Below are positions 1 through 38,367 of a DNA stretch of 38,367 nucleotides, piece after piece. The notes beneath the pieces were generated by a model. It had not been told where the DNA came from, made no database searches, and saw only the letters and a program-made list of their open reading frames with translations. Numbering within the stretch: the stretch's first letter is position 1; each line of letters starts with the position of its first letter. The stretch spans positions 1 through 38,367 of the forward strand of contig MHCJ01000002.1 of the NCBI GenBank assembly GCA_001816585.1, read 5' to 3'. Position numbers and translations under genes: made by a program. This stretch comes from Candidatus Chisholmbacteria bacterium RIFCSPHIGHO2_01_FULL_52_32. Its GTDB lineage: Bacteria; Patescibacteriota; Microgenomatia; UBA1400; Chisholmbacteraceae.

Positions 1-1422
1 GGGCGTCAGTCCACCCTGGTTGACAAGGTTCGACCTTGTCAGTCCTCCCTCCTTCGCCTCGCCGGAGTCCTGGACGAAGGCGGGTCCCCTCTGCTCTTCG
101 CTCTCTGCCATCCGCCCTCCACCCTCAACCCTCGACCCTAAACCCTCTCCTCTCATCATCCCTATCCCGAACACCCTCCCCAACCAGCCAATTGGGAACT
201 GTGGACTTTTGACTTTTGACTTTTGACTTTGGACTACTCCTTCTCCCGCCTCACGGGAGAAGGAGAGGACCACTGCCAACGTGAAGTAGTATTTCAAACT
301 ATATAAAAAGAATACGCTCCCCATCATAAGCGCAATTGAAGCAAACACCCATCCCATAGCTTGATAGAGGCTCGCGGCTGATCCAATCAGCCTCCCCCAC
401 TCAAAGCTGCCAAACAGAATGAGAAATACAAGAAGGAGGAACGGAGAGGAGCGGAACAAAGAAGAAAGAGCCGGAACTAACCCCGGTGCCGCCGGCCCAG
501 AGGGCCTCAGGCCCGGAGGGGGTCCCGCCGGAGCCCGCGTCGGCACGAACTGCTCAAACACCTGCTTCAGACGGCCAAGCCAGGATAGTTCCGGCCGTAC
601 ATCCAGTATCTCTTCGGCCTGCCGCCGTAAAAACCTTGCATACGCTTCCCGCAAGGACACAGAGGCAAGGTTATGGCTGCGCAGCACTTTCCATACGGTA
701 AAGCTTGAGGCGGGCACAAAGCTTGCGAGCCTGTGGACGGAAAGCCGAGGCTGGCTCGCAACAAGTGATAGAAGTTTCTCCTCTATCAACGGGTAAATCG
801 CCCGCGGATGTGCAGCCGCGCGAGCATATCGCTCCCGAAATGCCTCCGAACTAATCAACCCGATTTCTGATGCCCTCTTATACTTTTCAATCCACTTATA
901 GATAGTTTTTCTGGCAACCCCATGTCGTTTCGAAAGCTCGGAAATCGGTACATTCTCATCAATTGCCTCCCTGACGATGGAAAGCTTGATTTCCGGAGTC
1001 AACCGCCCCGGCCCCGACCACTGCTTGGCAAAAACCCTTCGAAGTGCCGGCGTTGAAACCCCGAGTGAACGTAGCAGCTTAAAAACACCAAAGTACCCGA
1101 CGGAGATGCCCCGCTTCTTTAACTCATAGCTGAACTTCCTGCATCCCCATTCGGGGTGCGCTACGGCCAAACGAACAAGCACTAGACGCGCCGCTTCAGC
1201 CGCTATCCTTGGGTGGCGATCTCCTGAAACATACCGAGGTTCAAGTGAAGCAGCCTTAAGCCGGGCCGGGCTACTTTGATATCGCTTAATCCATTTATAG
1301 ATAGTCTTGCGGGCGACGCCGAACTCTCGACTGACAGCAGAAACGGGTTTTCGCGCCTGAAGAACCGCCTCAACGGCCTGGCGCTTAAGTGAAGAAGAAA
1401 TGCGGAGCCTCTGGGCAGACAT
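1..1422 (-). CDS. Partial CDS whose 3' end runs off the window start: N-terminal 474 aa of a paralogue of the HTH-HTH-TM-GT2 fusion at 2843..7765
   Basis: Absent from the ORF track because no stop lies in the window. Hand check: ATG is the complement of 1420-1422, and no tta/cta/tca triplet occurs in frame down to position 1. An upstream in-frame stop lies at 1486-1488. The translation has two HTH modules (MSAQRLRISSSLKRQAVEAVLQARKPVSAVSREFGVARKTIYKWIKRY... and ...ISELSKRHGVARKTIYKWIEKY...). TM helices follow (...WVFASIALMMGSVFFLYSLKYYFTLAVVLSFSREA...), colinear with the first ~470 aa of the 1640-aa ORF. Nucleotide blocks 164-189 and 268-354 match 6441-6466 and 6575-6661. Confidence 0.8.
   Translation of the reverse strand, partial: MSAQRLRISSSLKRQAVEAVLQARKPVSAVSREFGVARKTIYKWIKRYQSSPARLKAASLEPRYVSGDRHPRIAAEAARLVLVRLAVAHPEWGCRKFSYELKKRGISVGYFGVFKLLRSLGVSTPALRRVFAKQWSGPGRLTPEIKLSIVREAIDENVPISELSKRHGVARKTIYKWIEKYKRASEIGLISSEAFRERYARAAAHPRAIYPLIEEKLLSLVASQPRLSVHRLASFVPASSFTVWKVLRSHNLASVSLREAYARFLRRQAEEILDVRPELSWLGRLKQVFEQFVPTRAPAGPPPGLRPSGPAAPGLVPALSSLFRSSPFLLLVFLILFGSFEWGRLIGSAASLYQAMGWVFASIALMMGSVFFLYSLKYYFTLAVVLSFSREAGEGVVQSQKSKVKSPQFPIGWLGRVFGIGMMRGEGLGSRVEGGGRMAESEEQRGPAFVQDSGEAKEGGLTRSNLVNQGGLTP
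115..149. repeat. 7-nt periodic tract CCCTNNA x5, in frame inside CDS 1..1422
   Basis: Units are ccctcca ccctcaa ccctcga ccctaaa ccctctc. The sense (minus) strand reads GGG-N4 x5 and encodes ..GEGLGSRVEGGG.. Confidence 0.8.
204..238. repeat. Heptamer tract GACTTTT x3 plus two degenerate units, in frame inside CDS 1..1422
   Basis: Units are gactttt gactttt gactttt gactttg gactact. The sense strand (AAAGTCA)n encodes QSQKSKVKS. The tract lies in the variable cassette between conserved flanks. Confidence 0.85.
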
Positions 1423-2220: not shown

Positions 2221-2853
2221 CTATGTTGACCGCACGCTACCCATCAGAGATCCTTTTTCCTCTAATACGTACGCGTAGGAAAACCACCAGAAGAAAAATA
2301 ACCAAGCCAGGACCGCGAGCGTCGAACCGTAGTCATGAAAGACAATCGCAACCGACTGGCCGAAGGCATACGCGATCAGGACAACGGCCGCAATCCGGAA
2401 CAGATTCACCAAAAACGTTCCCAAGAACCCGATCATCCACGCCTTAACCTTTGACAAATCCGTATATCGGTCCCCCTGCAAACCAACCCATGAGGTAATC
2501 ACGAAGAACAACAAAGATTGCCATCCGATGCAGTTCCAGGCAATCTCAACTAATAGTTGAGATTGTCCTGAGCGACTGAAAGGAGTCGAAGGACCCCCTC
2601 CGATCGCCAAATACTCCCCAACAACGCCCGGCTTAAGCCCAAGCGGCCAAAGGATCACCCCCACCATCCTAACCTCCCAGGGAACAACGTAATCTTGGAT
2701 CACCTTATATCCATCTAAACTCATCACAATACGTGTTAATACATCATTGAAAGTCGTTACAAAAGGCATAAAAACCAGTACTACAACCAAGATTATGAAT
2801 ATCCAGATAAAAGTTTCTTTTTCCAATAATATGGTTTTTTGTTTAATGAGCAT
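2221..2853 (-). CDS. Exosortase/archaeosortase-family-like polytopic membrane protein (210 aa)
   Basis: Start chosen at the internal ATG 2853 (MLIKQKTILLEK...). The longer ORF to 2973 would lie inside the upstream gene. Motifs resembling the exosortase Cys/Arg/His set: ..VEIAWNC(108)IGWQSLLFF.., ..FLVNLFR(153)IAAV.., ..AIVFH(173)DYGS... The protein is hydrophobic throughout. It overlaps the stop of the 1640-aa gene by 11 nt. Confidence 0.6.
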   Translation of the reverse strand: MLIKQKTILLEKETFIWIFIILVVVLVFMPFVTTFNDVLTRIVMSLDGYKVIQDYVVPWEVRMVGVILWPLGLKPGVVGEYLAIGGGPSTPFSRSGQSQLLVEIAWNCIGWQSLLFFVITSWVGLQGDRYTDLSKVKAWMIGFLGTFLVNLFRIAAVVLIAYAFGQSVAIVFHDYGSTLAVLAWLFFFWWFSYAYVLEEKGSLMGSVRST

Positions 2854-5800
2854 TTTTCTCCTTGCGCCAACCCTTGAGCGCTTTTGGCAAAAACGGGGCC
2901 AGTACCAATAAAATGAGGGATTTTTCGGGAACTGTCGCGAATTCAAAATTGCCGGTGCCTTGCCGCAAGACAACTCCAGCCTCTGAAATATTGGTAACTA
3001 CTCTCATCGAGGCAACATGGCCCAAGTCTCCCGGACTAAAACCGTATGGGCAACCTCCTACCGATTGGCAAACATCGCTTTCAACCGAATTAGTAGCTTC
3101 GTCCCACCTTAAGAAATAGGCTTGTTCCGATGTATCCTTAATTACGGAAAGAATTAGGTCGTTTTCGCTTGAAGCGTATGTTGCCGTTGCATAAATCAGG
3201 TTGGTTGCGCCGGTAAAAACACTGGAAGACGACCAGCTCCTTCCCGCATCGGTGCAAGGAGTTGCACAGCGATACAGGGTTGATGTATTAGCTCCATTAA
3301 CCGCATGAACATAAAAATCACCATCACTAGTCTTAACCAGACCAAAGCTTGTGGAAGTGTTGGCCGTGTCTATTGCAACTTCGGTTCCCCATGTATTGCC
3401 TGATACATCGCGGTAGTTATGCCTTAAGCCCGTGGCACCGGCCTCCTGCCAAACAAAGTGAATGTTGTTTCCGTCGACTGTTGCTGTCAACTGGTCTGCT
3501 GCGGTAATCCCTGAACCGGTGGTAATATCCGTAAAGGTAACTGATCCGTCACAATTTGCCGTTACTCCCGTTACCTCCAAGACATCCGGATCGTCAGAAT
3601 AACTGACAACGAAGTCCCCGTTGGTCCCTTTATTAATGCTCACATAATCACTAAGGTTTACGTTGCCTAAATCGGCACTGGAACAAACTGCAGTTCCTGG
3701 AGTATCCGAACTGGCGGTATCAATAGATTGAAAGTTGATATCATCCCCCGTGGTGTTTGTGTCGTCAAACCAGGCGACCCAAATGGTAGTTCCATCAAGG
3801 GTAACAACCGGTCCTTCATTGTCTGTATCACCGCCATCGCTCATTAAAACATCGCTTCCGCTACTCCAGCTGGCTCCTCCATTATTGCAATTACTGGAGC
3901 ATTTCCGGTAGGCAATCCTGCCTCCGTCGTTGTGGAAGGCATAATAAGCATTTGAAACATAAACAAGCTTTTGCTCCTGGCCTCCAAAATCAACATCGGC
4001 ATCAACGATATTTCCTGAAACAATCACCGAAGGGTCAAGCACTACTGGATATATTCTATTCGGAGCGCTCGTCCACTCTAAAGCACCTCTTTCCAATTTT
4101 TTGATAAATGTATACGAGGTTAAATCCTTTTCAACCTCGAATTTTATGTCCCTGTTTCTTTCGGACGTATTATTCTTTTCGTAAACTACACCTTCTCCCA
4201 ATTTGAATACTTCATTGTTTTCCTCATCGAATACGCCATACGTTCCATTTGTACCAATAAGTCGGACCTCATGGAGAGCCATCTTCTGCATAATGCCTTT
4301 AATGGGAAGTCTCTCTCTGATGATAAATTGCTCAATAAACCCGCTTGGTTTGATTTTATAAACAAGGTCAACGCCCTCTACTATTTCCTCATAACGAACC
4401 TCTTGGTCATCAATAATGAGGCTTTTCTTTGGACTTACCGCCCCGATACCGGTAATTTCCAGAGTGGTAATTTCCATTTCTCTTTCGCCAATTTTTATTC
4501 TCACTCTTGGTTCTTTGTGAAATATCATCTCCAATTCTCTTCCGTCTTCCTGTGTAACTCTTATCTGTCTCGGTGTGCCTATAACTTCAACCTTAGTCTC
4601 TGGTGTCTTGCCTTCAACAGCGTCCTGAACCGAAACGAATTTCTCTCCCGAGTTTGCCTGGGCAGTGGCTGTAATGGGTATAAAAGGAGCCATGATTACA
4701 AGAAGGCTGGTTATTAATACCACAAGGGAGAATGCCGCATCCCCAGCCCAACGCATATGACGCGGCCTTATTCTGAAGTTTTGGAATCGGTTATTGGCCG
4801 TAGCAAGGACAAGGTAGGGTTGAATCGTACCAATCAATGAGCCCTTGGAAATCCGGCTCTGGAGAGGTGCAGGCCACCTGCTTGGCAGGATTCCGGACAT
4901 AAACCGATAGAACCGTCCCCTCCGAAATATATCCGTGATTCTGCCCGTCTTCGGTGTCCGGAACCAGGGCCCCTCTGAGCGCTCTAAAAATCCCTTCACC
5001 GATGCGTACGCTTGAAACGGGACAAGCAGGTACGAAAGGGTTACAAAAGAGAATATTCCTAAATAATCCCGCTCCTCCGCCTCCTCAAGAAACAACCCGA
5101 CGGTATTGAGAAGTGGCAGAGATAGCAAGTTGGTTACCACCAAAGACCAACCCCACACCTGGGTCCAAAATGGGAGACGGGTACGGAAAACCATCTCAGA
5201 AATAAGCCAGCTGACTGTGCCAATCAGAAAGAAGGCGGCTTGGAGGTAGTAGGGGGAAAGGTAGAGGAACTCCAGTTTCTCTGAAAAAGAGAGGGGGGAA
5301 GGTAACCACACCATTCCCTGTTTCTGGGAGGGATAATTGTTATATTGTTCTATTGTTCTATTGTTTTCCTGTCTGAAACTTTGAACTTTAAACTGTAACT
5401 TTTCACTTTGAACTTTAAACTTTGAACTTTCAACATCCGCCCACCGGCCAAACAGGAGCCTCAGGAATGTCTTGCGGATGTTGAAGGAGTGTCCCTCCGC
5501 CCAGCGCATCCGCTGCCTGACGAGTCGCTGGAGGGTGGACACGCATTCCGCGGGAGCCTGGATATATGGGGTGTATAAGACTTTATATCCCGCTTCGTAA
5601 AGCCTTAAGGTAAGCTCAAAGTCTTCGGTAAGAGTTGTTCCCCACCCAAAACGGTCGAGCAAGTCCCTGCGTATCATATAGACAGACCCGGCAATCAATT
5701 TCATACCACCGTAGAGTTCATTCCCACTCCGCTCAACGACATACGACCCGGCGTATTCGGATCGGATGCCCCTGGTAATCCAGTTCTCCGATTTGTTCAG

Positions 5801-7765
5801 GACATGCCACTGGTAGCCCTGGATAGCGGCGATCGGAGAACTGAAAACTGAAGACTGAAGACTGAAGTTTTGTCTTGAGTCTTTAGTATTTATTTTTAAG
5901 TCAAGACTTCCCGCGCTTGCCTGGAAGTACTTCAGGAACAATTCCAGCGTATCCGGGTACGGGACAAAGTCCGCATCAAACACCACCACAAACTCTGTTC
6001 GGGGGTCACTGACCCGGAGCGCCTCGCGGAGGGCCCCTCCCTTGAAGCCTTCCCGATCTGCACGGTGGATCAGGGTGAATGAAGGAGTATCAGGGGTGGA
6101 AGGGGTAACGTGAAGAATTTCCTCCCCCTGATCTCCCTTGATCTCCCTTGCTTCCCCTTGATATCCCTTCAGGAATCGTTCCACGATTCCTGTTGTCTCA
6201 TCCGTGCTGTCATCGGCGACCACAACCTCGTAGTTTGGATAGTCAAAGGACGTACAGGCTTTAAGGAGTCTCTCTACCACCTTGGATTCGTTGAAAAGAG
6301 GCAGATGGACGGAGATGAAGGGATACCGCTCAAGCTTGACCTGGGATACATCAGGCGTAAGCCCAGTTTGACTGGGTTCCAGTCCCCCTCCCGAAGAGCT
6401 CGATCCCGGATCGGGCATTGACGATCCGGGATCGTTATGGATCCCGAACACCCTCCCCAACCAGCCGATCTTTGAACTGAAAACTGACGACTGACGACTG
6501 AAGTCTTGTTTTGAGTCTTGTGTGCTAAGTCTTGAGCCTTGAGTTAAGTCTTGAGCTTCCCTGGAGAAGCTCAAGACTACTGCCAACGTGATGTAGTACT
6601 TCAAACTATATAAAAAGAATACACTCCCCATCGAAAGCGCGATCGAGGCAAACACCCATCCGAGAAGTTGGACAGGACTGGTTGCGGATCCAAGAAACCT
6701 ACCCCATGCAAAGCTCCCTGACAGAACAAGAGCGGAAAGTACAAAGAAAGGAAGAGATCGCCGCAGCAAGGAAAAAAGAGATCGTACCCCTCCGACTAGC
6801 CCGCCGAAGCCTTGCCGTGCGTCGCCAAAGGCTCTGCCGGCGGCGCGGCGAAGGCGGGAGCCAAAATCAAAGGGGGGCGGCCCGATCGGCGCGCCGGTGA
6901 CAAGAAATTCTACGATCGCAAGCCTCAGGTAATTCAACCATGCGGTCAATGGGTAAACAGGCAAACGGGCCGCGCGAATCTGCCTGGAGTACGCCAGTCG
7001 CCTTTCAATAGTAGATAACCCGCTTCGCTCAAGAACCCGCTGCACTCCATGGTTTCCTACGAATCCCAGTCGCTTCGCAATCTTCCCCGCGGAATACTCG
7101 GGGTAAGCCGCCACAAAGTCAAGCACCACCCGCTCTTTCTCCTTGCGCAAACCCCGGGGATGCTGTGATGCAGAAGGGTTACGGTCCTCCAAAGCAACAA
7201 GCAGTCTCTCATTCCGAGTGATTGCGTCCAGATACCGCCGCTTCCATTTCACCAATGTCTTTCGGGAAACGTGGAATTCCCGGGCCACCTCCCCGCTCTT
7301 CCGCTTCGAAAGAACCACTTCCTCAACCATCCGTTTTCTCGCCGAAGCGTGTAAGCGCAACCACGCGGGAAGCCCGGGCTGAACTTTCGCAGGGATTCGA
7401 TACGAAGATGCAAATGCCTCCCGTTCGATCCGCAACTGAAGCCCCTGATGCTTCAGGAACAACCACACACTCCGAGGGCTCATTTGAATTCGTTGTTCAC
7501 CAAGAGCCCATGAGATCTTATCCGGCCCAAACTCAGGATGGGAAATGATGATGGGAAGGAGCCTGTTGCTTGCGGGCTCACTCCGGCTGACGCGTTTGGC
7601 AGCCGATTCCTCCGGAGTACGCCTGATTTCCGGCCCGTACCGATGAAGCCAAGCGTAGATGGTCTTTCTTGAAACTCCCAGGCGTCTTGAAGCCTCGGCT
7701 TTGGTTACTCGTCCTCGAAGAACGTGTTTGAGGAGGAATCGTACTCTATACGAGAGATTTAGCAT
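2843..7765 (-). CDS. 1640-aa multidomain fusion: 2x transposase-type HTH, TM helices, processive family-2 glycosyltransferase, TM helices, extracellular Asp-box/BNR-like domain and a PEP-CTERM-like tail
   Basis: Single 4.9-kb ORF. HTH modules: ..EASRRLGVSRKTIYAWLHRY.. and ..EVAREFHVSRKTLVKWKRRY... GT2 motifs: ISVHLPLFNESKVVERLL..YEVVVADDSTDET, VVFDADFVP and QRMRWAEGH (QxxRW). Several hydrophobic helices flank the GT2 domain. The C-terminal ~600 aa contain ..NGGASWSS.. and ..DAGRSWSS.. (Asp-box-like). The tail is FEFATVPEKSLILLVLAPFLPKALKGWRKEKNAH. Confidence 0.85.
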   Translation of the reverse strand: MLNLSYRVRFLLKHVLRGRVTKAEASRRLGVSRKTIYAWLHRYGPEIRRTPEESAAKRVSRSEPASNRLLPIIISHPEFGPDKISWALGEQRIQMSPRSVWLFLKHQGLQLRIEREAFASSYRIPAKVQPGLPAWLRLHASARKRMVEEVVLSKRKSGEVAREFHVSRKTLVKWKRRYLDAITRNERLLVALEDRNPSASQHPRGLRKEKERVVLDFVAAYPEYSAGKIAKRLGFVGNHGVQRVLERSGLSTIERRLAYSRQIRAARLPVYPLTAWLNYLRLAIVEFLVTGAPIGPPPFDFGSRLRRAAGRAFGDARQGFGGLVGGVRSLFSLLRRSLPFFVLSALVLSGSFAWGRFLGSATSPVQLLGWVFASIALSMGSVFFLYSLKYYITLAVVLSFSREAQDLTQGSRLSTQDSKQDFSRQSSVFSSKIGWLGRVFGIHNDPGSSMPDPGSSSSGGGLEPSQTGLTPDVSQVKLERYPFISVHLPLFNESKVVERLLKACTSFDYPNYEVVVADDSTDETTGIVERFLKGYQGEAREIKGDQGEEILHVTPSTPDTPSFTLIHRADREGFKGGALREALRVSDPRTEFVVVFDADFVPYPDTLELFLKYFQASAGSLDLKINTKDSRQNFSLQSSVFSSPIAAIQGYQWHVLNKSENWITRGIRSEYAGSYVVERSGNELYGGMKLIAGSVYMIRRDLLDRFGWGTTLTEDFELTLRLYEAGYKVLYTPYIQAPAECVSTLQRLVRQRMRWAEGHSFNIRKTFLRLLFGRWADVESSKFKVQSEKLQFKVQSFRQENNRTIEQYNNYPSQKQGMVWLPSPLSFSEKLEFLYLSPYYLQAAFFLIGTVSWLISEMVFRTRLPFWTQVWGWSLVVTNLLSLPLLNTVGLFLEEAEERDYLGIFSFVTLSYLLVPFQAYASVKGFLERSEGPWFRTPKTGRITDIFRRGRFYRFMSGILPSRWPAPLQSRISKGSLIGTIQPYLVLATANNRFQNFRIRPRHMRWAGDAAFSLVVLITSLLVIMAPFIPITATAQANSGEKFVSVQDAVEGKTPETKVEVIGTPRQIRVTQEDGRELEMIFHKEPRVRIKIGEREMEITTLEITGIGAVSPKKSLIIDDQEVRYEEIVEGVDLVYKIKPSGFIEQFIIRERLPIKGIMQKMALHEVRLIGTNGTYGVFDEENNEVFKLGEGVVYEKNNTSERNRDIKFEVEKDLTSYTFIKKLERGALEWTSAPNRIYPVVLDPSVIVSGNIVDADVDFGGQEQKLVYVSNAYYAFHNDGGRIAYRKCSSNCNNGGASWSSGSDVLMSDGGDTDNEGPVVTLDGTTIWVAWFDDTNTTGDDINFQSIDTASSDTPGTAVCSSADLGNVNLSDYVSINKGTNGDFVVSYSDDPDVLEVTGVTANCDGSVTFTDITTGSGITAADQLTATVDGNNIHFVWQEAGATGLRHNYRDVSGNTWGTEVAIDTANTSTSFGLVKTSDGDFYVHAVNGANTSTLYRCATPCTDAGRSWSSSSVFTGATNLIYATATYASSENDLILSVIKDTSEQAYFLRWDEATNSVESDVCQSVGGCPYGFSPGDLGHVASMRVVTNISEAGVVLRQGTGNFEFATVPEKSLILLVLAPFLPKALKGWRKEKNAH
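2846..2947 (-). other. C-terminal tripartite sorting-signal candidate (VPEK motif, hydrophobic helix with APFLP, basic cluster)
   Basis: FEFATVPEKSLILLVLAPFLPKALKGWRKEKNAH aligns with the tail of the Kelch protein, IVIPERVWLLFGAAPFLPLLLKRRRKE. Confidence 0.55.
5334..5365. repeat. 8-nt periodic tract (NNATTGTT x4) in frame within the GT2 fusion
   Basis: taattgtt atattgtt ctattgtt ctattgtt. The sense strand (AACAATNN)n encodes ENNRTIEQYNNY. The same unit type occurs intergenically at 26902..26949. Confidence 0.8.
5376..5434. repeat. 7-nt periodic tract (AACTTTN, about 8 units) in frame, just downstream of the QxxRW motif in the protein
   Basis: aaactttgaactttaaactgtaacttttcactttgaactttaaactttgaactttcaac encodes ESSKFKVQSEKLQFKVQSF. 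Confidence 0.8.
5841..5908. repeat. Low-complexity module, copy 1: CTGAAGA-type heptamer x4, then gtcttgagtctt-type arm
   Basis: ctgaaaa ctgaaga ctgaaga ctgaagt tttgtcttgagtcttt... encodes DSRQNFSLQSSVFSS. It parallels the module at 6477..6556. Confidence 0.8.
6130..6170. repeat. 10-nt periodic tract (GATCTCCCTT-like x4) in frame
   Basis: g atctcccttg atctcccttg cttccccttg atatcccttc. The sense strand has four GGG(G) runs with 6-7 nt loops and encodes KGYQGEAREIKGDQGE. Confidence 0.75.
6477..6556. repeat. Low-complexity module, copy 2: CTGACGA-type heptamer x4, then repeated (a)agtcttgag units
   Basis: ctgaaaa ctgacga ctgacga ctgaagt cttgttttgagtcttgtgtgctaagtcttgagccttgagttaagtcttgagc encodes ..QDLTQGSRLSTQDSKQDFSRQSSVFSS.. 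Confidence 0.8.
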
Positions 7766-7808: not shown

Positions 7809-8391
7809 GTAGAAAAACGTTTGTTGCGATAGATCAGTCTATAATCGTTCAAAAAAATAATAGCTAAGCAAAAAGTATGTAGTTCTGTCAATTTTCAGGA
7901 TTGAAAGTGTAACCGGAAGACAGAAACTCACGCAGGTACGGACAAGAGTTAAGGATTATTGCTTTCCAGAGGTAAAAAGGAATTATAAGATAAGAGCCGG
8001 AAGAACAGCACCAAATGCCTCTTAAACGGTACCCGAAGTCGTTTCTGACAACTTTATAGCTACCCAAGGCAGAGATTAGCCTTAAAAAAGGATACAGAAG
8101 GCCGACCTTGAGGTAAAAAGAACTATAATTTCAAACAGGAATAAGCGACCGGCATTCCATCGGCCACCCTTCCTTCACTCCTTATGGGATTTAAAGAACG
8201 GATATAACATAAACTGATTGATATAGTAACATTATAACAGCTTAAAAAAGATCATGTAATGCTATAGTAAAAAAGAGATTAGAAGAGAATATAAATATGT
8301 AGTAAAGTGGATAATGATATGTGATATAAGGTGTTATAGAAGAGGTAGGAATAAAACGTAATAATTGTTAATAAAAAACGCAAATATCCTA

Positions 8392-8420
8392 TTGACACCA
8401 ATCATATCAACTTTTATACT
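8392..8420 (+). promoter_or_regulatory. Sigma70-type promoter for the MerR-family gene
   Basis: TTGACA (8392-8397), a 17-nt spacer, then TATACT (8415-8420), 22 nt upstream of the ATG at 8443. Confidence 0.6.
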
Positions 8421-8442
8421 GAAAGCATACAGGGTTTGCTCT

Positions 8443-8748
8443 ATGAACACGCAAAATCCCATCATTTCAATCAGTGTCGCAGCCAAACTACTAAAATTGC
8501 ACCCAAGAACGCTTATGCTTTATGAAAAAACAGGGCTTCTTGCCCCCTACCGAACTCAAACCAGCCGACGCCTCTATTCAAAAGATGATCTGGCAATTCT
8601 TCACTTCATCAAATTCCTCACCCAGGAGAAACGAATAAGCCTGCAAGGGGTCCTCTACCTTCTCAAAGCCATACACCTCGCGGAGGGACGTAACCTCGAA
8701 CTGCAAAGACTTCTTTTCCCGGAGTACAAAAAAAAGACTCTCGTTTGA
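8443..8748 (+). CDS. MerR-family transcriptional regulator, HspR-like
   Basis: Start taken at the internal ATG 8443, downstream of the promoter. ..ISISVAAKLLKLHPRTLMLYEKTGLLAPYRTQTSRRLYSKDDLAILHFIKFL.. matches the MerR N-terminal HTH pattern. Confidence 0.75.
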   Translation: MNTQNPIISISVAAKLLKLHPRTLMLYEKTGLLAPYRTQTSRRLYSKDDLAILHFIKFLTQEKRISLQGVLYLLKAIHLAEGRNLELQRLLFPEYKKKTLV

Positions 8749-9156: not shown

Positions 9157-11259
9157 CTAAAAAGCGCTGCGGTCGAGCTCACTTTCACGCCCACCCAGCC
9201 GTTCAATGAAAAGCGAAACACGCTGCGAAAATTGCGGTCGGAAAAGAACGAATAACAGCGCCACTACACTCACCACAATTCCCGAAATCACATCCAACCA
9301 CGGTTCATAGCGAAGTTTGATCGTCAGTATCCCCGATCGTACGGGCCGAAGCACAATCATCCCCATTGGATCCCGCACAAGCGAAACGGGCATAGAGGTC
9401 TCACCAACGCGCCAGAACGGCGAGGAAGCAACCGCCAATCGAACGCCCTGACCCTCGTTGACTTGCGCCGCAATATCCACTTCCCGCTCCCCCGTAAATC
9501 GGACCACAGCCGGCTCTCCGAGTTTCTCAACATACCCCAAAAGACCCGACGCATCATCGCCCTTTTCAGGAGGTAAAACGGACAAAATCCCCAAATCAGC
9601 CACCTCCGCCAGCCCCCGTTTTTGTCTCCGGTAAATCATATCTCCCGCACGCTCCCAAACCTTCTCCCACCCCTCCATGCCGTCAAACTTCGAAGGATAC
9701 CGGAAATCGTGGTAAACCTCCAAAGATTCCTCCCCATGTACCACCAGATACGAAACGCCCAAGACTTTAAGCCACAGATCGGCAAGTTCCGCATCTCTCC
9801 CCTCTCGGATTTGATACGATCCATGCGGCCACCACGGATTAAGCGATCCCTGTTCTCCTCCTCCCCGAACCTGCGCCACATCAAACCAGCTGTTAAGCCA
9901 GAACGCCGAACTTCCCGAAACATACGCCCGAAGAGAGCAATTGCCGACTTCCCTGCAGTCATCATCCATGAACCGGGACAACGCTTCTCCCACCCGGTAT
10001 TCCGCAGTCTCAGGAAAAGCCACCCCCTCAGAAATCATGATTCCCCTCTTGAAAAAAAACGGCAATCCGAGGACAAGCATCCCCGCAAACACCCAAAGTC
10101 GCAGTGTACGCCCCATATTTCTGTCCCAAATGAGCCCGGTGAGGGACATCCCCACCGCAAGGTCCAAAGACCGTCCGAACCGGCTGTAGTCCTGCCAAAA
10201 ATCCGGATCGGCAGTAAAAGCTGCCACGGTCAAACTGCCGTATACGAGAAGCCCCATTATCCCGATCACAGTGAGAGGCGAAGCCGTTCGGAACCACTTC
10301 CGCGCCGCAACCACCCCGAGGATCGCAGGAATAACCACGAAAAACTGTCTGAAAAGCCCAGCCACAACCACCGCAAACGGTCGACCGCCCAGGGACGGCG
10401 CACGGAGAACCGTGAAGAAGAAGCCCGGGGTAAACCAAAGACTCGTCATCAAAACCCCAAGCAGAGTAACCACCAGAAGTCGCGCGAATAACTTCACAAG
10501 ACCCCCCGAAGCGATTGTCGGCCGAACCACAGCCGCCAGCAGAAGCACCAGAATCCAAAGGAAAAAGGAAATCAGGCTCAACGAATCCACCAGAATCATC
10601 GCTCCAACCGCCAAAGCCAGCCACCTCGCCTTCCCGACCTCCCATTTCTTGGCCAGCATGAGGCAGAGAAGCAATGCCATCATGACGAACACAAAACCGA
10701 TCACACCCTGCCCCTCGCCAAGGTAAAATGCCGAGAACATCAGAAAGGACGGAAATCCGAGAGGACGAAGCACACCAAATATCTGGGGAAATAAAACCAA
10801 TACAGAAGGTATCAATATGGTAAAAAATGTAACAAAAATGGCGGGTATTGTCGCGTCAACGGATGACGCATTCAAGCGAGCCTTCTTCTGATCGCCGGAC
10901 ATAAAGGAAAGCTCTCTCACCAAGAACAGGCTGACCGCGTAAACAGCCCCCACCACCCCCACCACTCCAGACGCCACCATCCCTCGCCACACGCGAAATA
11001 ACGATCCGGGATCGTTATAAGGAAAAAGAGACAAAATCCAAGGCAAAACAGGCGACCCGATGTGCTGCCCGGGGATTCCCAAAAACCAATACCGGTTCCA
11101 ACTCCAACCACCCAAACCCTGCCCCAAAAACCGCGCTTTCGCAAGCACAAACCCATCCGCCGCCCCCATCCACGCCGGACTACGCACACCCAATGCCGGG
11201 AAAACCCATAGGAAAGAAACGAAAAGAATCAGAAAGAGCCCAAACCAAGTCCACTTCAC
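9157..11259 (-). CDS. Large polytopic membrane protein, putative GT-C-type glycosyltransferase (YfhO-related organisation)
   Basis: 700 aa with a GTG start. More than 10 hydrophobic helices, then a soluble C-terminal domain and a terminal TM (..LTIKLRYEPWLDVISGIVVSVVALLFVLF..). The N-terminal ..WNRYWFLGIPGQHIGSPVLPW.. resembles the loop-1 region of YfhO-like proteins. Family assignment is tentative. Confidence 0.5.
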   Translation of the reverse strand: MKWTWFGLFLILFVSFLWVFPALGVRSPAWMGAADGFVLAKARFLGQGLGGWSWNRYWFLGIPGQHIGSPVLPWILSLFPYNDPGSLFRVWRGMVASGVVGVVGAVYAVSLFLVRELSFMSGDQKKARLNASSVDATIPAIFVTFFTILIPSVLVLFPQIFGVLRPLGFPSFLMFSAFYLGEGQGVIGFVFVMMALLLCLMLAKKWEVGKARWLALAVGAMILVDSLSLISFFLWILVLLLAAVVRPTIASGGLVKLFARLLVVTLLGVLMTSLWFTPGFFFTVLRAPSLGGRPFAVVVAGLFRQFFVVIPAILGVVAARKWFRTASPLTVIGIMGLLVYGSLTVAAFTADPDFWQDYSRFGRSLDLAVGMSLTGLIWDRNMGRTLRLWVFAGMLVLGLPFFFKRGIMISEGVAFPETAEYRVGEALSRFMDDDCREVGNCSLRAYVSGSSAFWLNSWFDVAQVRGGGEQGSLNPWWPHGSYQIREGRDAELADLWLKVLGVSYLVVHGEESLEVYHDFRYPSKFDGMEGWEKVWERAGDMIYRRQKRGLAEVADLGILSVLPPEKGDDASGLLGYVEKLGEPAVVRFTGEREVDIAAQVNEGQGVRLAVASSPFWRVGETSMPVSLVRDPMGMIVLRPVRSGILTIKLRYEPWLDVISGIVVSVVALLFVLFRPQFSQRVSLFIERLGGRESELDRSAF

Positions 11260-15933: not shown

Positions 15934-15937
15934 CGTA

Positions 15938-31460: not shown

Positions 31461-31486
31461 AAATCGTAAATCCAAAATCCTCTCCC

Positions 31487-34286: not shown

Positions 34287-37200
34287 TTAGGGTGCATGGG
34301 CCCGGATGACCGCCTCCTTCCTCCTCCTCTTCAGCAGTAATGGCAAGAATGGTGCCGCCCCGAACAGCAGCCAGACACGTTCCGGGATGACGATATACGC
34401 CCAGTCCACATGGAAGGGAGAGGTTCCTCCGACCGTCCACATGCCGAAGATGTGGGAAGCACCGGAGTAGTTGGAGGAGGTGGAGGAGAAATCATCATTT
34501 TGGGCCCCATTGACGGTCTGTTCTCCCGCCCACTCGGATGGATCATCACACCCGGTTGAAACGGTACAGCTGCTGTACCGGACAAGGTCCGTCCCGGCCC
34601 CGGCTTCTTCCGTCCATATGGAATACAGGACACTCGCATCAGTATCTAAAGAGAGGGAAGGATAGCTGTCATCATTATCTTCAAGATCGGCAGCCAGGAT
34701 GGCCGATCCCCAGGTCGTTCCCGTCCTCCGTTTGTAGGAGACTTGGTCTGTTCCGGCGTCATCGATGAAAATGAGATGGACCAGGGAGCCGTCGGAAACC
34801 GCCGACAGGGTATCGGCAAGGTTGGCATTGACGCTATCGATAGAATCCTGGCTTCCGGGCGCCCCGACCTCGAGCCTGCTCTCCACCCCGGTATTATCAT
34901 AGGAGATCGTCACTGATCCCACACTCCAGGTGAATCGCACCCGGTGCCGCCGCATGGTCAGGTTCCCCACCGTATCTGAAGGAGGGGCATTAGCTCCTCC
35001 GGTGGTGAAGGTCACGGTTTGCAATACCGTACAGTCTCCGCCGTCACAGGTCGGACCCCAGGTTTGGGAAGCGGAAGCCTTGGCAACCTGGGTGCCGTCC
35101 CATTCCGTGATATCGGTGTTGACGGTCAGGGTGGCCGCTTGGTTGGCTTTGAACTTGACGACCCAGCTGGTCGTTTGGGGGACATTCACTTCATTGATAT
35201 TCAGGCTCTGCCCGCACACCCGGACCAGAGAAGTGGTGTTACTTACCCCGCATTCTCCTGCTGCAGCTCCGGTATCATTCCTATTGTCCTCAAAGCCGAT
35301 GACCATCCGCTTCGTCTGGTCTCCCAAGGTCCCAGTAATCCCTCCAAGAGATGGTCTTCCCGAATAGTGGCTTCCCGTCCCCCCGCCGAAAGTATCCGCC
35401 CGGATGTCCATGACAGCGTAGGGGGAGGTATACCCCACCCCTGTTGAAGCAGCCGGCCATTGGGGAGCCCCCGTCGTCCCATCAAACTTCTGCATGAAGA
35501 CATTCTTGTCAGAGGTAACGGTATTCCCGACAAAGCTCCGGTCATCCTCCCAGACCACGTACGGATTTCCCGAGTCAACCGCAATCCGAGGATATCGTTG
35601 GTTTCCCGAAAGAGCAAAGTCATGGGAGAGCATCAGCTCACCGGCAGGGTTGTAGAGCTCGGCACTTGTCAGGATCCCGTTGTTATCCCCACCGGTGGTC
35701 AGGACTTTCCCGGTCGAAAGTAAGACGGAAATATGCCTGCGAGTGCCGAGGTTCAACCCGCCTGTCGTATAGGTAAATGTCCCCGCGGAGGGATCGAACA
35801 GCTCCGCAGTGGTGAGAGAAGAACCACTTAACCCACCGATGAGAACAGTTTTCCCGTTCGGTAGGAGGATGGCACTCTGCTCCGTCCGCGCGGTCTTCAT
35901 ACCACCAGGTGTGGTCGTAAACGTCTCGGTTGCGGGATCGAACAGCTCCGCGACGGTCGAATTCCCGGTAACCAGGACTTTCCCGGTATCCAGAAGCAAT
36001 GCCTGGTGTTCATAGCGTGTGTTGGCAAGTCTTCCGGTGGTAAAGGTAAAGGTGTTCCCTTGGGGATCATAGATCTCGGCGGTGGACAGATCCCCCGCAA
36101 AATTCCCCCCCACTACGAGCACCCTGCCATTGGAAAGCAGGGTCGCGGTATGTCCGCTGCGGGCGGTGTTTAAACCCCCGGTCGTCAGGGTGAAGGTTCC
36201 GGTCGAAGGATTGAACAGTTCAGCGCTGCTCCGATTCCCCGAGGGGCCCCCGCCTCCGACCACAAGAACCTGACCGCTGGGGAGAAGGACCGTTTGCCCC
36301 TCGGTACGGTTCTCGATGAGGTTCCCCGTTGCAGTGAAGGTGCCGCTTGCCGGGTCATAGAGCTCGGCCGATGAATGTTTTGTGCTGCATTCGCTTGCCC
36401 CGGCACAGCCCCCTGCCACCAGGACCTTGCCGGTATTGAGCACGGCCATGGAAAACCGGTGCCGCTCGACCGCCATATTGCCGGTTGAAGCAAAAGTAGA
36501 CGCGGCAGGATCGTACAATTCCGCCGTCGATGCTATCGTGGTACAGCCAAAATTGGTACACCCCCCCGCAACCAGGACCTTCCCATTGGGAAGCAGGACA
36601 GCGCTGAATCGCTGCCGCTGGGTCACCATCCCTCCGGTCGTCGTGGTAAACCGGTCGGTCGTCCCACTCGGCCATTGGTTCGTCAATCCACCGGATGTGG
36701 GGTCGTTGGTTCGTTGTCCGTAGATCTTCCAACTCCCGCCGCCGTGATTGGCTCTCGAGACGTTCACCCCGCTCGATGAGCCGCCGCCCCCTCTCCCCGC
36801 CCAGGCAAAGAAGATCGAGGAGCCGGACACCACCGCATCCGGGCTTTCCTGGTCTGCCAGATCCACCCCGCTGTTGACCATCTGGTCGATCGAATACACC
36901 TCAGCAGTGGAGAGGGAAGCCGCCACACTAACTCTCCCTCCCGCGATGAGGATGTTACCGTTCGGGAGGAGCGCGACTGTTTGGTCATAGCGCCTCCCGA
37001 TCAGGTTACCGGTGGAAGAAAAAGTCCCGGTTGCCGGATCGTAGACCTCGGCTGTAAAGAGAGAACCACCGGAACTTCCCCCCACAACCAGCACATGGCT
37101 ATTGTTAAGAAGGGCTGCGGTATGTTGGGAACGGTTCCCGATGAGGTTACCGGTAGAAGCAAAGGTTCCGGTTGCCGGGTCGTAGAGCTCGGCTGTGGAG

Positions 37201-38367
37201 ATGTAGGCCCCATCGTATCCCCCCGCCACCAGCACCTTGCCGTTTCCAAGCAAGGTGGCGGTGAAGTCCTCGCGTAGTCCGATCAGGTTACCGGTAGAAG
37301 AAAAAGTCCCGGTTGCCGGGTCGTAGAGCTCGGCTGTGGAGAGGGAATTAGAGCCTACAACGATCCCCCCCGCCACCAGGATACGGCCATCCGGAAGGAG
37401 AGTGGTGGTGTGTCTCTCTCTCCTTCCGATCAGGTTACCGGTGGAGGAGAAAGTGCCGGTCACCGGGTTGTACAGTTCAGCCGTCGAGATGGTGACAATA
37501 TCGTCTCCTCCACTGACTAACACCCTTCCATCAGCAAGCAAGGTGGAAGAGAAATCATAGCGCCTGCCGATGAGATTGCCGGTAGAAGAAAAAGTGCCGG
37601 TTGAGGGGTTGTAGATCTCTGCTGTGGAAACCGAAACAACAGAAACGCCATACCCCCCCGCCACCAGAACCGCGCCATTGGGGAGCAAGGTCGAGGAGAA
37701 GTTCCGCCGCCTCCCGATCAGGTTACCGGTGGAGGAGAATGTGCCGGTCGAAGGGTCGTAGAGCTCGGCTGTGGAGACGGCAGCACCGTCATATCCCCCC
37801 GCCACGAGGACTTTTCCATTCGGAAGGATGGTAGCAATAAACTCTTGCCGCCTCCCGATAAGGTTCCCCGTCGATGACCATGTCTGTCCCCAAAGTGGTG
37901 AGCCGCTCGAATTGATCTTCTGGGCATAGATGTTCCCTTCCCGTTTGAGGGTTCCCGATTCTGCCTTGCTGGCGCTGTTACTGTCCCAAGTCAGGATGGC
38001 GTTGGTCCCGTCTATGGCAAGGGAAGGATTACGGTTGCCGTCCCCGGTTGATGATAGCCCGATATCCTCCGGATTGTTCTGGTTGACACCGGCTTGGTCA
38101 TCCCCCCAATTCTTGGCTCCGTCGGAGCTTGACAGCTTCTGTCCCATGATCCGAAGTGGCGGTCCGGTGATGGCCGGGAGGGCTCCGCAGGAGTTATTCG
38201 TTCCCCCTCCTCCGTTACAGGCTCCTGCTGCGGCAAGGTTCACGTTCGTCTGCCACCATGCGTTGGAGTCGTAATTCCATGACAGTCCCCAGTTCTGGAT
38301 TGCAGCATCACGGTCATCTTCCCATGCCACAATCACGTTGTTTGAAGTATCAATCGCCAGAACCGGC
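34287..38367 (-). CDS. Giant secreted/surface protein, 5'-partial: two 7-bladed Kelch-type propellers, a C-terminal domain related to that of the GT2 fusion, and a PEP-CTERM-like tail
   Basis: The frame stays open upstream of the GTG at 38336 to the window edge (..PVLAIDTSNNVIVAWEDDRD..). There are 14 blades of 43-52 aa following the pattern TFSSTGNLIGRR..F..TLLPNGKVLVAGG....STAELYDP.TG. The tail is ..HVDWAYIVIPERVWLLFGAAPFLPLLLKRRRKEAVIRAHAP. Confidence 0.85.
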   Translation of the reverse strand, partial: PVLAIDTSNNVIVAWEDDRDAAIQNWGLSWNYDSNAWWQTNVNLAAAGACNGGGGTNNSCGALPAITGPPLRIMGQKLSSSDGAKNWGDDQAGVNQNNPEDIGLSSTGDGNRNPSLAIDGTNAILTWDSNSASKAESGTLKREGNIYAQKINSSGSPLWGQTWSSTGNLIGRRQEFIATILPNGKVLVAGGYDGAAVSTAELYDPSTGTFSSTGNLIGRRRNFSSTLLPNGAVLVAGGYGVSVVSVSTAEIYNPSTGTFSSTGNLIGRRYDFSSTLLADGRVLVSGGDDIVTISTAELYNPVTGTFSSTGNLIGRRERHTTTLLPDGRILVAGGIVVGSNSLSTAELYDPATGTFSSTGNLIGLREDFTATLLGNGKVLVAGGYDGAYISTAELYDPATGTFASTGNLIGNRSQHTAALLNNSHVLVVGGSSGGSLFTAEVYDPATGTFSSTGNLIGRRYDQTVALLPNGNILIAGGRVSVAASLSTAEVYSIDQMVNSGVDLADQESPDAVVSGSSIFFAWAGRGGGGSSSGVNVSRANHGGGSWKIYGQRTNDPTSGGLTNQWPSGTTDRFTTTTGGMVTQRQRFSAVLLPNGKVLVAGGCTNFGCTTIASTAELYDPAASTFASTGNMAVERHRFSMAVLNTGKVLVAGGCAGASECSTKHSSAELYDPASGTFTATGNLIENRTEGQTVLLPSGQVLVVGGGGPSGNRSSAELFNPSTGTFTLTTGGLNTARSGHTATLLSNGRVLVVGGNFAGDLSTAEIYDPQGNTFTFTTGRLANTRYEHQALLLDTGKVLVTGNSTVAELFDPATETFTTTPGGMKTARTEQSAILLPNGKTVLIGGLSGSSLTTAELFDPSAGTFTYTTGGLNLGTRRHISVLLSTGKVLTTGGDNNGILTSAELYNPAGELMLSHDFALSGNQRYPRIAVDSGNPYVVWEDDRSFVGNTVTSDKNVFMQKFDGTTGAPQWPAASTGVGYTSPYAVMDIRADTFGGGTGSHYSGRPSLGGITGTLGDQTKRMVIGFEDNRNDTGAAAGECGVSNTTSLVRVCGQSLNINEVNVPQTTSWVVKFKANQAATLTVNTDITEWDGTQVAKASASQTWGPTCDGGDCTVLQTVTFTTGGANAPPSDTVGNLTMRRHRVRFTWSVGSVTISYDNTGVESRLEVGAPGSQDSIDSVNANLADTLSAVSDGSLVHLIFIDDAGTDQVSYKRRTGTTWGSAILAADLEDNDDSYPSLSLDTDASVLYSIWTEEAGAGTDLVRYSSCTVSTGCDDPSEWAGEQTVNGAQNDDFSSTSSNYSGASHIFGMWTVGGTSPFHVDWAYIVIPERVWLLFGAAPFLPLLLKRRRKEAVIRAHAP
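34290..34412 (-). other. C-terminal tripartite sorting-signal candidate (IPER motif, hydrophobic helix with APFLP, KRRRKE)
   Basis: Aligns with the tail of the 1640-aa protein under the consensus [VI]PE[KR]..(L)L....APFLP..LK..RKE. Confidence 0.55.
36890..37900. repeat. Tandem DNA repeats of 141/147 nt (7 units) encoding the first Kelch propeller
   Basis: The unit core (c/t)ccgat(c/g)aggttaccggt(g/a)gaag... recurs at 36996, 37137, 37278, 37425, 37566, 37713 and 37854. Units at 36996 and 37278 differ at only a handful of positions over about 65 nt by eye. Confidence 0.85.

Follow-up and report, generated by a model that had tools for sequence, protein, structure and literature searches.

Exosortase/archaeosortase systems for the sorting of surface proteins are already known, and their cargo is normally a separate secreted protein. 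To our knowledge, only one member of this protease family has been studied experimentally. In the archaeosortase ArtA, Cys173, Arg214 and Arg253 are critical for catalytic activity (PMC9263693). In Methanosarcinales and ANME archaea, the cargo of archaeosortase C (ArtC) is again a set of separate, secreted proteins (PMC5244752). In the XrtG system of Firmicutes, i.e. in monoderms, a small exosortase is found with a neighbouring, C-terminally sorted cargo and adjacent GT2 genes; the original prediction for the locus described here took XrtG to be without an assigned cargo signal, which is outdated, as its signal is Firmicu-CTERM (PMC12854382).

The locus analysed in this work lies in a stretch of DNA of 38,367 nucleotides, which as a whole is called the window. 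A gene for a small sortase-like protein (the sortase, for short) overlaps the end of the gene of a giant polysaccharide synthase, and the features that concern us are as follows.

2221..2853, minus strand: proposed mini exosortase/archaeosortase-family gene, 210 aa (TIGR04178 match, invariant putative catalytic residues)
2858..2863, minus strand: Shine-Dalgarno site AAGGAG, read directly from the sequence, within the end of the synthase ORF and 4 nt before the sortase ATG
2843..7765, minus strand: fusion protein of 1640 aa with two HTH domains, transmembrane helices, a processive GT2 domain, a signal-anchor helix, an ectodomain and a tail
6998..7732, minus strand: pair of cytoplasmic HTH domains of transposase type at the N-terminus, residues 12-256 (Pfam HTH_28, HTH_23, HTH_Tnp_1, HTH_32)
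4949..6316, minus strand: BcsA/PgaC-like processive GT2 catalytic region (Pfam PF13641, PF13632, PF00535)
4655..4735, minus strand: post-GT2 helix, residues 1011-1037 (hydropathy and positive-inside rule)
2936..4654, minus strand: extracytoplasmic all-beta ectodomain, residues 1038-1610, whose last ~215 aa match the C-terminus of the Kelch protein
2846..2935, minus strand: tripartite sorting tail TVPEK-SLILLVLAPFLP-KALKGWRKEKNAH (tail HMM 37.4 bits, P-E invariant)
1..1422, minus strand: start of a further HTH-GT2 paralogue, directly downstream of the sortase gene and running off the window start
34287..38367, minus strand: second tailed protein, with Kelch repeats (Kelch_1, 229 bits) and, at its C-terminus, a domain that is a paralogue of the synthase ectodomain

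Results and Discussion

The sortase-like protein

The translation of the 210-aa ORF contains AWNC (C108), NLFR (R153) and VFHDY (H173), i.e. the Cys/Arg/His arrangement that had been claimed for it, and the same positions are invariant alignment columns. The three residues are 97-99% conserved among 95 sequences and invariant in 44 relatives, where P30, W106, G110, W111, Q112, S113, G145 and W189 are invariant as well. The exosortase/archaeosortase signature HMM, TIGR04178, covers residues 102-191 with 41.3 bits (cutoff 23) and is matched by 44 of the 44 relatives. The predicted exosortase-family membership is thus borne out by a score above the curated cutoff and by the invariant Cys/Arg/His. 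PF09721, which the prediction had also named as a check, gave only 18.3 bits, below the gathering score of 25.7; many close relatives have a precomputed match to this model, and one fusion protein (P0198, see below) scores 35 bits. In its AF2 model (pLDDT 83) the protein is helical and polytopic, with C108, R153 and H173 in or at predicted helices. Foldseek found no match for this model at E <= 0.001, PDB sequence searches with the protein gave no match, and we know of no solved exosortase structure on which the active-site geometry could be checked.

We propose that the protein belongs to an unnamed 'mini' subfamily, with a median length of ~196 aa, of the exosortase/archaeosortase cysteine-protease/transpeptidase family. 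It reaches none of the named subfamily models. The best-scoring one, archaeosortase C (TIGR03762), was rejected at 28.4 bits against a cutoff of 100; weak matches to it occur in 36 of the 44 relatives, the best with E = 5.7e-10. Membership in XrtG (TIGR03110), which the original prediction had brought up, was rejected at 10.1 bits against a cutoff of 102.75, with weak matches only, in 15 of the 44 relatives.

The sortase ATG is at 2853-2851 and the TAA of the 1640-aa ORF at 2845-2843, so that the sortase gene begins inside the end of the synthase ORF with an overlap of 11 nt, as predicted. This start is supported because the Shine-Dalgarno site stands 4 nt before the ATG; the relatives start at the equivalent position. 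The overlap and the Shine-Dalgarno site suggest translational coupling of the two genes. In the relatives, the distance from the upstream ORF's end to the estimated sortase start ranges from ~-240 to ~+100 nt and is negative in about half of the loci, counting upstream ORFs with or without a tail; for tail-bearing upstream ORFs alone it is mostly ~-30 to +93 nt. A promoter/terminator scan of the window stayed at chance level, and Rfam and tRNA scans of it were empty.

The giant synthase and its ectodomain

The catalytic region of the 1640-aa protein has the GT2 fold, the motifs DAD (596-600), TED (712-717) and QRMRW (751-755), a gating-loop-like WFRTPK (934-939) and flanking membrane helices, and so meets the criteria of a processive membrane GT2 (GT2 fold, DxD, TED, QxxRW, flanking helices). 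NCBIfam gives partial matches to PgaC, CelA and NodC; the polymer made cannot be assigned because no equivalog model reaches its cutoff. The order HTH-GT2-ectodomain-tail is also found in seven orthologues. The N-terminal HTH domains are kept in the CPR orthologues, and a Dehalococcoidia locus has REC and MshEN domains instead. The truncated paralogue at the window start shares 36% identity with the N-terminus of the 1640-aa protein along a stretch of ~430 aa and has tblastx matches to the GT2 N-termini of three related loci.

The post-GT2 helix consists of a basic n-region, then AFSLVVLITSLLVIMAPFIP, then ITATAQA with N as the next residue. Judged from its sequence it is much like a signal peptide placed inside the protein, with an AxA site that would be cut between the last A and N; the cleavage is inferred. 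A small-x-Ala pattern is present in 67 of 87 relatives, compared with 48% in control windows (p = 2e-8). Because of this resemblance, the ectodomain could be released from a synthase polyprotein, and the sorted cargo may be the freed ectodomain rather than the intact synthase, with the cleavage again inferred.

The ectodomain varies from 172 to more than 2700 aa among the relatives. A Pfam search with it gave no match, and a search for homologues returned a single protein. Over its last ~215 aa the ectodomain shows homology with the C-terminal end of the Kelch protein (E = 4e-6). An AF2 model built from 3 sequences is unreliable (pLDDT 39).

The proposed sorting tail

The 1640-aa protein ends in ...NFEFATVPEKSLILLVLAPFLPKALKGWRKEKNAH, and its translation confirms the claimed succession of TVPEK, hydrophobic helix and basic cluster. 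The P-E codons are at 2924-2929, and from hydropathy and the positive-inside rule the P-E is inferred to lie at the outer membrane face. The general pattern is [VIL]-P-E-x, followed by a short hydrophobic helix with Pro in it (P-F-L-P) and then Lys/Arg; only P-E, at the helix start, is invariant, and it is so in both tail alignments. The first Lys/Arg follows P-E at a median of 16 residues. This short, proline-rich stretch is atypical for a transmembrane helix, an observation that we count against the sortase reading.

A tail HMM found 66 domains of >= 10 bits among 4527 ORFs of the window and 80 related loci (these loci had been retrieved through the sortase) and none in the reversed sequences of the same set. 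Nearly all matches are in the last 40 residues of their ORFs, on the same strand as the sortase and mostly <1 kb upstream of its gene. The tail of the synthase is a real, conserved C-terminal domain. The Kelch protein ends in ...YIVIPERVWLLFGAAPFLPLLLKRRRKEAVIRAHAP, a tail of the same subtype that is coded at 34290-34397 and scores 35.4 bits; its N-terminus is beyond the window, and nothing longer than short contigs came up when it was sought by way of neighbouring genes.

The two window tails are matched by none of the CTERM models of NCBIfam and Pfam, and those of NCBIfam do not recognise a wider set of 33 tails either. In particular, PEP-CTERM (TIGR02595) has 0 matches in them and reaches 2 of 33 tails only at E = 0.035, the NCBIfam model for Firmicu-CTERM matches none of the 33 at E <= 10, and the PEF-CTERM model does not match any of them. 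Since no existing CTERM model covers the tail, the claim of a new sorting-signal class is fair if it is taken to mean a new PEP-CTERM-like variant. A tail-profile search of a 5.8-billion-protein set yielded only 7 short fragments. No other CTERM-type cargo was found in the examined loci. Enzyme and tail co-occur as is expected in the superfamily, whose members go with a matching C-terminal signal in three parts (motif, helix and basic cluster).

Pairing of sortase and synthase across genomes

Almost every cargo that is long enough to judge has the same BcsA-like GT2 domain, and the cargo ORFs of CPR bacteria, Dehalococcoidia, Dormibacterota and Bathyarchaeia share an orthologous GT2 (E 1e-100 to 1e-210). 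When the GT2 was taken as the starting point, 34 of 44 complete GT2 ORFs had the tail, and 24 of these 34 had a sortase <= 4 kb downstream. This leaves 10 tailed GT2 genes with no sortase inside that distance, and a few sortase genes likewise lack a tailed neighbour; it should be noted that some contigs are short and some ORFs split. The tail is present in other genomes with this sortase family, from CPR bacteria to Bathyarchaeia, and its conservation at the ends of orthologous GT2 synthases supports the claim that the cargo is the synthase's own C-terminal ectodomain. The same tail is also found on proteins that were not seen to carry a GT2, namely the Kelch protein of the window and proteins of two further loci (L056 and L076).

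Sortase identity and tail identity are correlated (Mantel r = 0.49, p = 0.001). Sortase paralogues within one genome are 32-41% identical, each with its own tail subtype, and each matches sortases of other genomes (42-81% identical) that adjoin the same subtype. L056 is not a paralogue comparison, as its two tails share a single adjacent sortase. The two partners also occur in one chain: P0198 and P0221 each join GT2, ectodomain, VPEN tail and sortase, in this order, in one polypeptide, and P0171 and P0192 are sortase-ectodomain-tail fusions.

As far as sequence comparison can tell, the sortase-synthase pair is recurrent and co-diverging, and sometimes fused, in CPR bacteria, Chloroflexi and Bathyarchaeia. 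Adjacency, co-divergence and fusions support the predicted sortase-cargo pair, with cleavage inferred. The pair looks like a new variant of the known surface-protein sorting system, although no cleavage has been shown and there are no whole-genome co-occurrence data. A literature search for exosortase and Patescibacteria found no paper, and candidate phyla radiation gave an unrelated match only.

Proposed mechanism and alternative explanations

We consider it likely that the 210-aa enzyme and the [VIL]-P-E-x tail form a dedicated sorting module. The sequences show that the enzyme belongs to the family and keeps the triad, that the tail is conserved and adjoins the sortase gene, that the two have co-diverged and that they are sometimes fused, while topology, cleavage, acceptor and the signal-peptidase step are inferred. 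The substrate signal would be the tail, which closes the ectodomain of the GT2 synthase and is found at the end of at least one further surface protein of the genome. The synthase would insert with its GT2 domain in the cytoplasm, the post-GT2 signal-anchor helix would export the ectodomain, and the tail helix would re-cross the membrane with the basic cluster staying inside. The co-translated sortase would then recognise P-E at the outer membrane face, and Cys108, helped by Arg153 and His173, would cut off the tail helix and the basic cluster. By analogy with ArtA, the new C-terminus might be passed on to an acceptor, either a lipid or a glycan, or else to water. The AxA site that follows the signal-anchor helix suggests a second cut, by signal peptidase, which may separate the ectodomain and the synthase. 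The synthase gene would in this way also serve to bring a sorted surface protein to the place where the glycan is exported.

For no member of the family has cleavage been demonstrated by biochemistry or proteomics, and this is counted against the sortase reading, as are the PF09721 score below threshold, the lack of a solved structure, the tailed GT2 and sortase genes that stand without the partner, and the lack of whole-genome co-occurrence data.

The partnership could also exist without proteolysis. The tail would then be a permanent, uncleaved membrane anchor that docks the small protein as a non-proteolytic subunit of the synthase, much as the C-terminal helix of BcsB packs against BcsA. 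Adjacency, co-divergence and fusion do prove a partnership and not proteolysis; the GT2 domain is BcsA-like in its TED, QxxRW and gating-loop-like motifs, the ectodomain with its terminal helix resembles a fused BcsB-type partner, and in the fused proteins the tail is internal. The last point carries less weight in view of ArtA, which processes internal tripartite signals (PMC9263693). We nevertheless find this explanation improbable, as the Cys/Arg/His residues are invariant across the family, fused forms included, but would be needless in a scaffold, and as the invariant P-E stands at the helix start, the motif site of all known exosortase/archaeosortase signals. Moreover, proteins not seen with a GT2 bear the same tail, and the length of the ectodomain is hypervariable, unlike that of a core subunit.

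We give still less credence to a sortase that is a hydrolase only, releasing the ectodomain to the medium or the S-layer without transfer to an acceptor, with signal-peptidase cleavage at the AxA site included. The signal-peptide-like helix with its AxA site does precede the ectodomain, and the status of ArtA as a true transpeptidase is still stated to be unresolved (bioRxiv 10.1101/2023.06.07.544157), but ArtA substrates, by analogy, speak against it, since they become lipid-anchored (PMC9263693). Our data cannot separate hydrolysis from transfer, and we regard this possibility as a sub-variant of the sorting module and not as a true alternative. Finally, the idea that the sortase serves an unlinked cargo, that its place beside the GT2 reflects a habit of EPS loci (exosortases are known in such loci, and XrtG and XrtP have associated glycosyltransferases) and that the tail is an ordinary anchor is close to refuted by the 66 tail matches, which nearly all stand immediately before the sortase gene and have no counterpart (0 matches) in the reversed controls, by the co-divergence of tails and sortase paralogues by subtype, by the natural single-polypeptide fusions and by the lack of any other CTERM-type cargo in the loci.

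Returning to the dedicated sorting module, we speculate, with more doubt than conviction, that it may work as a polyprotein assembly line in which the signal-peptidase and V-P-E cuts would free the ectodomain and the sortase would join its C-terminus to the nascent polysaccharide of its own synthase or to a membrane lipid. If this were true, export and the assembly of a glycan-protein surface conjugate would take place at one site, the sortase of the fused forms would process its own polypeptide in cis, and the system would be an ancient envelope-building device common to CPR bacteria, Chloroflexi and Bathyarchaeia.

The system is conserved and multi-copy in the Microgenomates (CPR) and Bathyarchaeia, groups that depend on surface contact with hosts and whose cell-surface biology is almost unknown. 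For annotation it offers two new HMM-definable families, the sortase subfamily and a VPEx-CTERM domain. Being compact, with two genes or only one, it also lends itself to the heterologous study of exosortase chemistry, i.e. of hydrolysis versus transfer and the nature of the acceptor.

Comparison with known systems

The general features of this locus can be compared to those of several known systems. Like the XrtG system, it combines a small exosortase-family enzyme (the XrtG profile is ~190 aa) with a dedicated neighbouring cargo and a GT2 association. Here, however, cargo and GT2 are one polypeptide, the tails have no Firmicu-CTERM match, and the hosts are CPR bacteria, Chloroflexi and Bathyarchaeia as opposed to Firmicutes. 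With ArtA of Haloferax volcanii (MEROPS C106) the sortase has in common the superfamily signature, its build as a polytopic protein of the membrane and the conserved Cys and Arg, which ArtA needs for activity; its tail shares with PGF-CTERM the tripartite build of motif, helix and basic cluster, the motif abutting the helix, and the handling of non-C-terminal signals by ArtA (PMC9263693) matches the internal tails of the fused proteins. The differences are that the motif is [VIL]PE instead of PGF, that ArtA is larger and that its substrates are many, unlinked (e.g. the S-layer glycoprotein) and without a synthase; no Art model reaches its cutoff for the present family.

Pro-Glu is common to our tails and to the PEF-CTERM signal (TIGR03024) of archaeosortase C, but the score for that subfamily is far below its cutoff and the cargo is not a separate protein. 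As with XrtA (EpsH) and PEP-CTERM, the enzyme is linked to polysaccharide biosynthesis loci, and many PEP-CTERM motifs begin with V-P-E. Our tails differ in having no second Pro, a P-F-L-P helix signature and clusters rich in Lys; the enzyme is roughly half as large as XrtA, and the 8TM_EpsH model matches 1 of 44 relatives. While XrtA belongs to Gram-negative EPS producers, the hosts here are monoderm or archaeal and the cargo is fused to the synthase.

At first sight the synthase is much like BcsA-BcsB, with a processive GT2 (TED, QxxRW, gating loop), a large extracytoplasmic domain and a single C-terminal membrane helix; AcsAB of Komagataeibacter is a synthase-partner fusion that is later split. 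Unlike BcsA-BcsB, the present protein has no PilZ domain, its hypervariable ectodomain has no detectable BcsB homology, and its terminal helix has an invariant P-E and, as partner, a protein of a Cys-protease family. What goes beyond the known systems is that the putative signal sits on the polysaccharide synthase itself, and that enzyme and signal have co-diverged as matched pairs, sometimes in one chain, so that the fused forms amount to a natural enzyme-substrate fusion.

The sortase and its family

The sortase ORF starts inside the end of the gene for the synthase, the 1640-aa HTH-GT2-ectodomain protein.

2221..2853, minus strand: sortase ORF, 210 aa, with AWNC (C108), NLFR (R153) and VFHDY (H173) in its translation

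The start codon (ATG at 2853) falls 11 nt within the synthase ORF (2843..7765, minus strand; TAA stop at 2845-2843), with a Shine-Dalgarno sequence, AAGGAG, 4 nt upstream. Re-translation recovered all the features that the original prediction described, i.e. the Cys/Arg/His protein, the 11-nt overlap and the TVPEK tail. The exosortase relationship inferred there is borne out by the NCBIfam signature of the exosortase/archaeosortase family, TIGR04178, which the protein matches at 41.3 bits (cutoff 23, E = 1.4e-10); Pfam PF09721 remained sub-threshold (18.3 vs 25.7). Every named NCBIfam subfamily cutoff was missed, including that of XrtG, the subfamily mentioned in the original prediction.

Named subfamily models against the sortase (score, cutoff)
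ArtC: 28 bits, 100
XrtX: 19 bits, 170
ArtF: 19 bits, 150
XrtG: 10 bits, 103

Judged by sequence models, the protein is thus a member of the superfamily that fails all named subfamily tests. Its AF2 model is helical, polytopic and confident (pLDDT 83, pTM 0.75), and the PDB contained no homologue by sequence or by fold.

A set of 5.8 billion proteins yielded 686 homologues; the matches listed, from Woesebacteria, Daviesbacteria and their relatives, share 57-76% identity with the sortase, and some already carry the NCBI/JGI name "exosortase/archaeosortase family protein". The family is modest in size, since in all 1.84 billion cluster representatives HMMER found 472 members at E <= 1e-3, of which 63 reach E <= 1e-30. 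Its median length is 196 aa, about half that of XrtA or ArtA. All of 44 diverse relatives match TIGR04178, none reaches a named subfamily cutoff, and P30, W106, C108, G110, W111, Q112, S113, G145, R153, H173 and W189 are invariant among them. ArtA, the one characterised homologue, depends critically on its conserved Cys173, Arg214 and Arg253 for catalysis (PMC9263693).

The C-terminal tail

The synthase ends in NFEFATVPEK-SLILLVLAPFLP-KALKGWRKEKNAH, and a second protein of the window ends in IVIPER-VWLLFGAAPFLPLLL-KRRRKE...

34287..38367, minus strand: Kelch-repeat protein, at least 1359 aa, 13 Kelch repeats, N-terminus beyond the window, APFLP tail subtype as in the synthase

Over its final ~215 aa the Kelch protein is a paralogue of the synthase ectodomain (E = 4e-6). 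Between its tail and the window's sole sortase gene lie 31 kb, which implies action in trans.

In 80 genome loci collected by way of sortase homologues, the same-strand ORF immediately upstream of the sortase very often closes with a tail of this kind. A 26-tail HMM (threshold >= 10 bits) found 66 domains in 4527 ORFs and none in the reversed sequences, nearly all inside the final 40 residues; 63 of the 66 have the sortase downstream on their own strand, in most cases at less than 1 kb. The consensus of 92 distinct tails is [VIL]-P-E-[NKRY]-x-L-x-L-L-x3-P-F-L-P-x-L-V-(K/R)n, and the first basic residue follows P-E at a median distance of 16 residues. P-E is the sole invariant pair in the alignments, rare variants being VDE, VSE and LPD. 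None of the NCBIfam CTERM models (PEP-, PEF-, VPEID-, Firmicu-, PGF- and MYXO-CTERM included) matches the tail, PEP_CTERM giving E = 0.035 from only 2 of 33 tails; Pfam, run with the two window tails only, gave nothing.

The synthase and its surroundings

Synthase layout, from N to C
two HTH domains
two membrane helices
processive GT2
further membrane helices
basic stretch
strong helix, residues 1011-1029, within the post-GT2 segment 4655-4735 (residues 1011-1037, minus strand): internal-signal-peptide-like, AxA-type site, equivalents in related loci L002-L133
570-aa all-beta ectodomain
tail

The GT2 domain contains DAD, TED, QRMRW and a WFRTPK that resembles the BcsA gating loop. The positive-inside rule predicts that the ectodomain lies outside the cell, with P-E at the outer membrane face. 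In the post-GT2 helix a basic n-region is followed by an h-region and then by a c-region that contains Pro and closes in small-x-Ala (e.g. TAQA|NS, SYA|SQP, EVLA|T); the small-x-Ala pattern is enriched, in 67 of 87 relatives vs 48% of control windows (p = 2e-8). In the Woesebacteria/Daviesbacteria/Curtissbacteria clade it closes with APF[IL]P, a motif also found inside the tail helix. It looks like an internal signal peptide, although cleavage is unproven; the ectodomain may hence be freed from the synthase to become a classic "signal peptide ... CTERM" substrate, the signal-peptidase step being likewise unproven.

Of the 65 tailed ORFs, those of judgeable length nearly all have an orthologous GT2 domain (E 1e-100 to 1e-210). 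A reverse search from this domain found the tail on 34 of 44 complete GT2 ORFs, 24 of the 34 having a sortase within 4 kb; several "tail-less" ones are split ORFs or have sub-threshold tail variants. Tailed cargo not seen to carry GT2 includes the Kelch protein and the proteins of loci L056, which starts with a signal peptide at its N-terminus, and L076. HTH domains form the N-termini in CPR, L078 is a Dormibacterota form and Bathyarchaeia have 800-aa forms (L070, L073, L075, L079, L080), Trm1 on the L079 contig being consistent with archaeal origin.

In a Dehalococcoidia orthologue (L051, 5973-9338) a response-regulator receiver domain (REC) and MshEN, a known c-di-GMP-binding domain, replace the two HTH domains, which suggests lineage-specific cytoplasmic control of the same predicted synthase-tail-sortase module. 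Many TPA_asm records labelled "uncultured Gammaproteobacteria bacterium" (L002-L005, L010, L013, L014 and others) contain loci 55-70% identical to Microgenomates genes, so that the taxonomy given for these bins is probably in error. Mis-binning may also affect some "Bathyarchaeia" SMAG bins (L096, L099), in which the GT2 genes are of CPR type.

The window is a glycan island. Its YfhO-like GT-C proteins number at least five, and it also encodes a TMEM260-like protein, several enzymes (GT2 proteins, two NAD-dependent epimerases and a methyltransferase) and a regulator of the MerR type.

Features of the surroundings
1-1422, minus strand: second giant HTH-GT2 paralogue, starting ~800 nt downstream of the sortase and continuing past the window start
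8365-8748: MerR regulator
9157-33772: glycan/glycosylation island
11402-13681, 13678-16017, 19689-21845, 24662-26884, 27005-29281: YfhO-like GT-C proteins
15938-16768, 23948-24661: GT2 genes
29325-31475: TMEM260-like protein

The paralogue is 36% identical to the synthase N-terminus over ~430 aa. The ~800 nt between it and the sortase (1423-2220) have no convincing ORF (only 72- and 125-aa TTG ORFs) and no Rfam or tRNA match, and their GC content, ~52-53%, is close to that of the rest of the left end (~52-55% for 1-2500). A 700-aa polytopic membrane protein (9157-11259, minus strand) and a 359-aa protein (22826-23905, minus strand) had no Pfam match at E <= 1e-5.

Pairing of sortase and tail

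Tail similarity follows sortase similarity in 69 adjacent pairs (Mantel r = 0.49, p = 0.001). Such a correlation could arise from shared species phylogeny, a possibility addressed by comparing paralogues: genomes with 2-3 sortases (32-41% identical mutually) have, for each one, a closest relative elsewhere (42-81% identical) that adjoins the same tail subtype, i.e. FEFA.VPEK, SLQIPENLLGFLPLG, ATAPVPEY, TP.ITIPEN or VVPEFTTVPEN. L056, in which two tails share one sortase, is no case of paralogy and was left out.

Natural fusions settle the partnership.

Fusion proteins
GT2-ectodomain-tail-sortase: P0198 (946 aa; locus L150, 3331-6171), P0221 (1227 aa)
sortase-helix-ectodomain-tail: P0171, P0192 and 474-aa Bathyarchaeia proteins (L070, 3892-5316; a second sortase gene comes next in Bathyarchaeia)

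In the first type, a single chain carries a ...FPIEVPEN tail before the sortase, and P0198 was confirmed as a single ORF on its contig; in the second, the sortase has its own ectodomain and VPE tail. The internal tails are compatible with cleavage because ArtA processes tripartite signals located away from the C-terminus (PMC9263693).

Proposed mechanism and known systems

A dedicated exosortase-type system for the synthase-borne ectodomain is the best-supported reading, even though cleavage is unproven. The sortase would cut the tail helix off the ectodomain and would probably pass the new C-terminus to an acceptor, also unproven. The main rival, that the sortase-like protein is a non-proteolytic docking subunit, like the BcsB anchor, is disfavoured, as Cys/Arg/His and the P-E motif are invariant whereas the ectodomain is hypervariable.

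Our literature search found no report on exosortases in Patescibacteria. What is new here, besides the sortase subfamily, the signal variant and the natural enzyme-substrate fusions, is the cargo, since a synthase polypeptide in this role is unprecedented. ArtA/PGF-CTERM is the closest analogue for the proposed mechanism and XrtA/PEP-CTERM is also among the closest, while the sortase of ArtC/PEF-CTERM is the best named HMM match, below cutoff. XrtG/Firmicu-CTERM is similar in its adjacent GT2 genes, but there the cargo is separate from the GT2 (PMC12854382).
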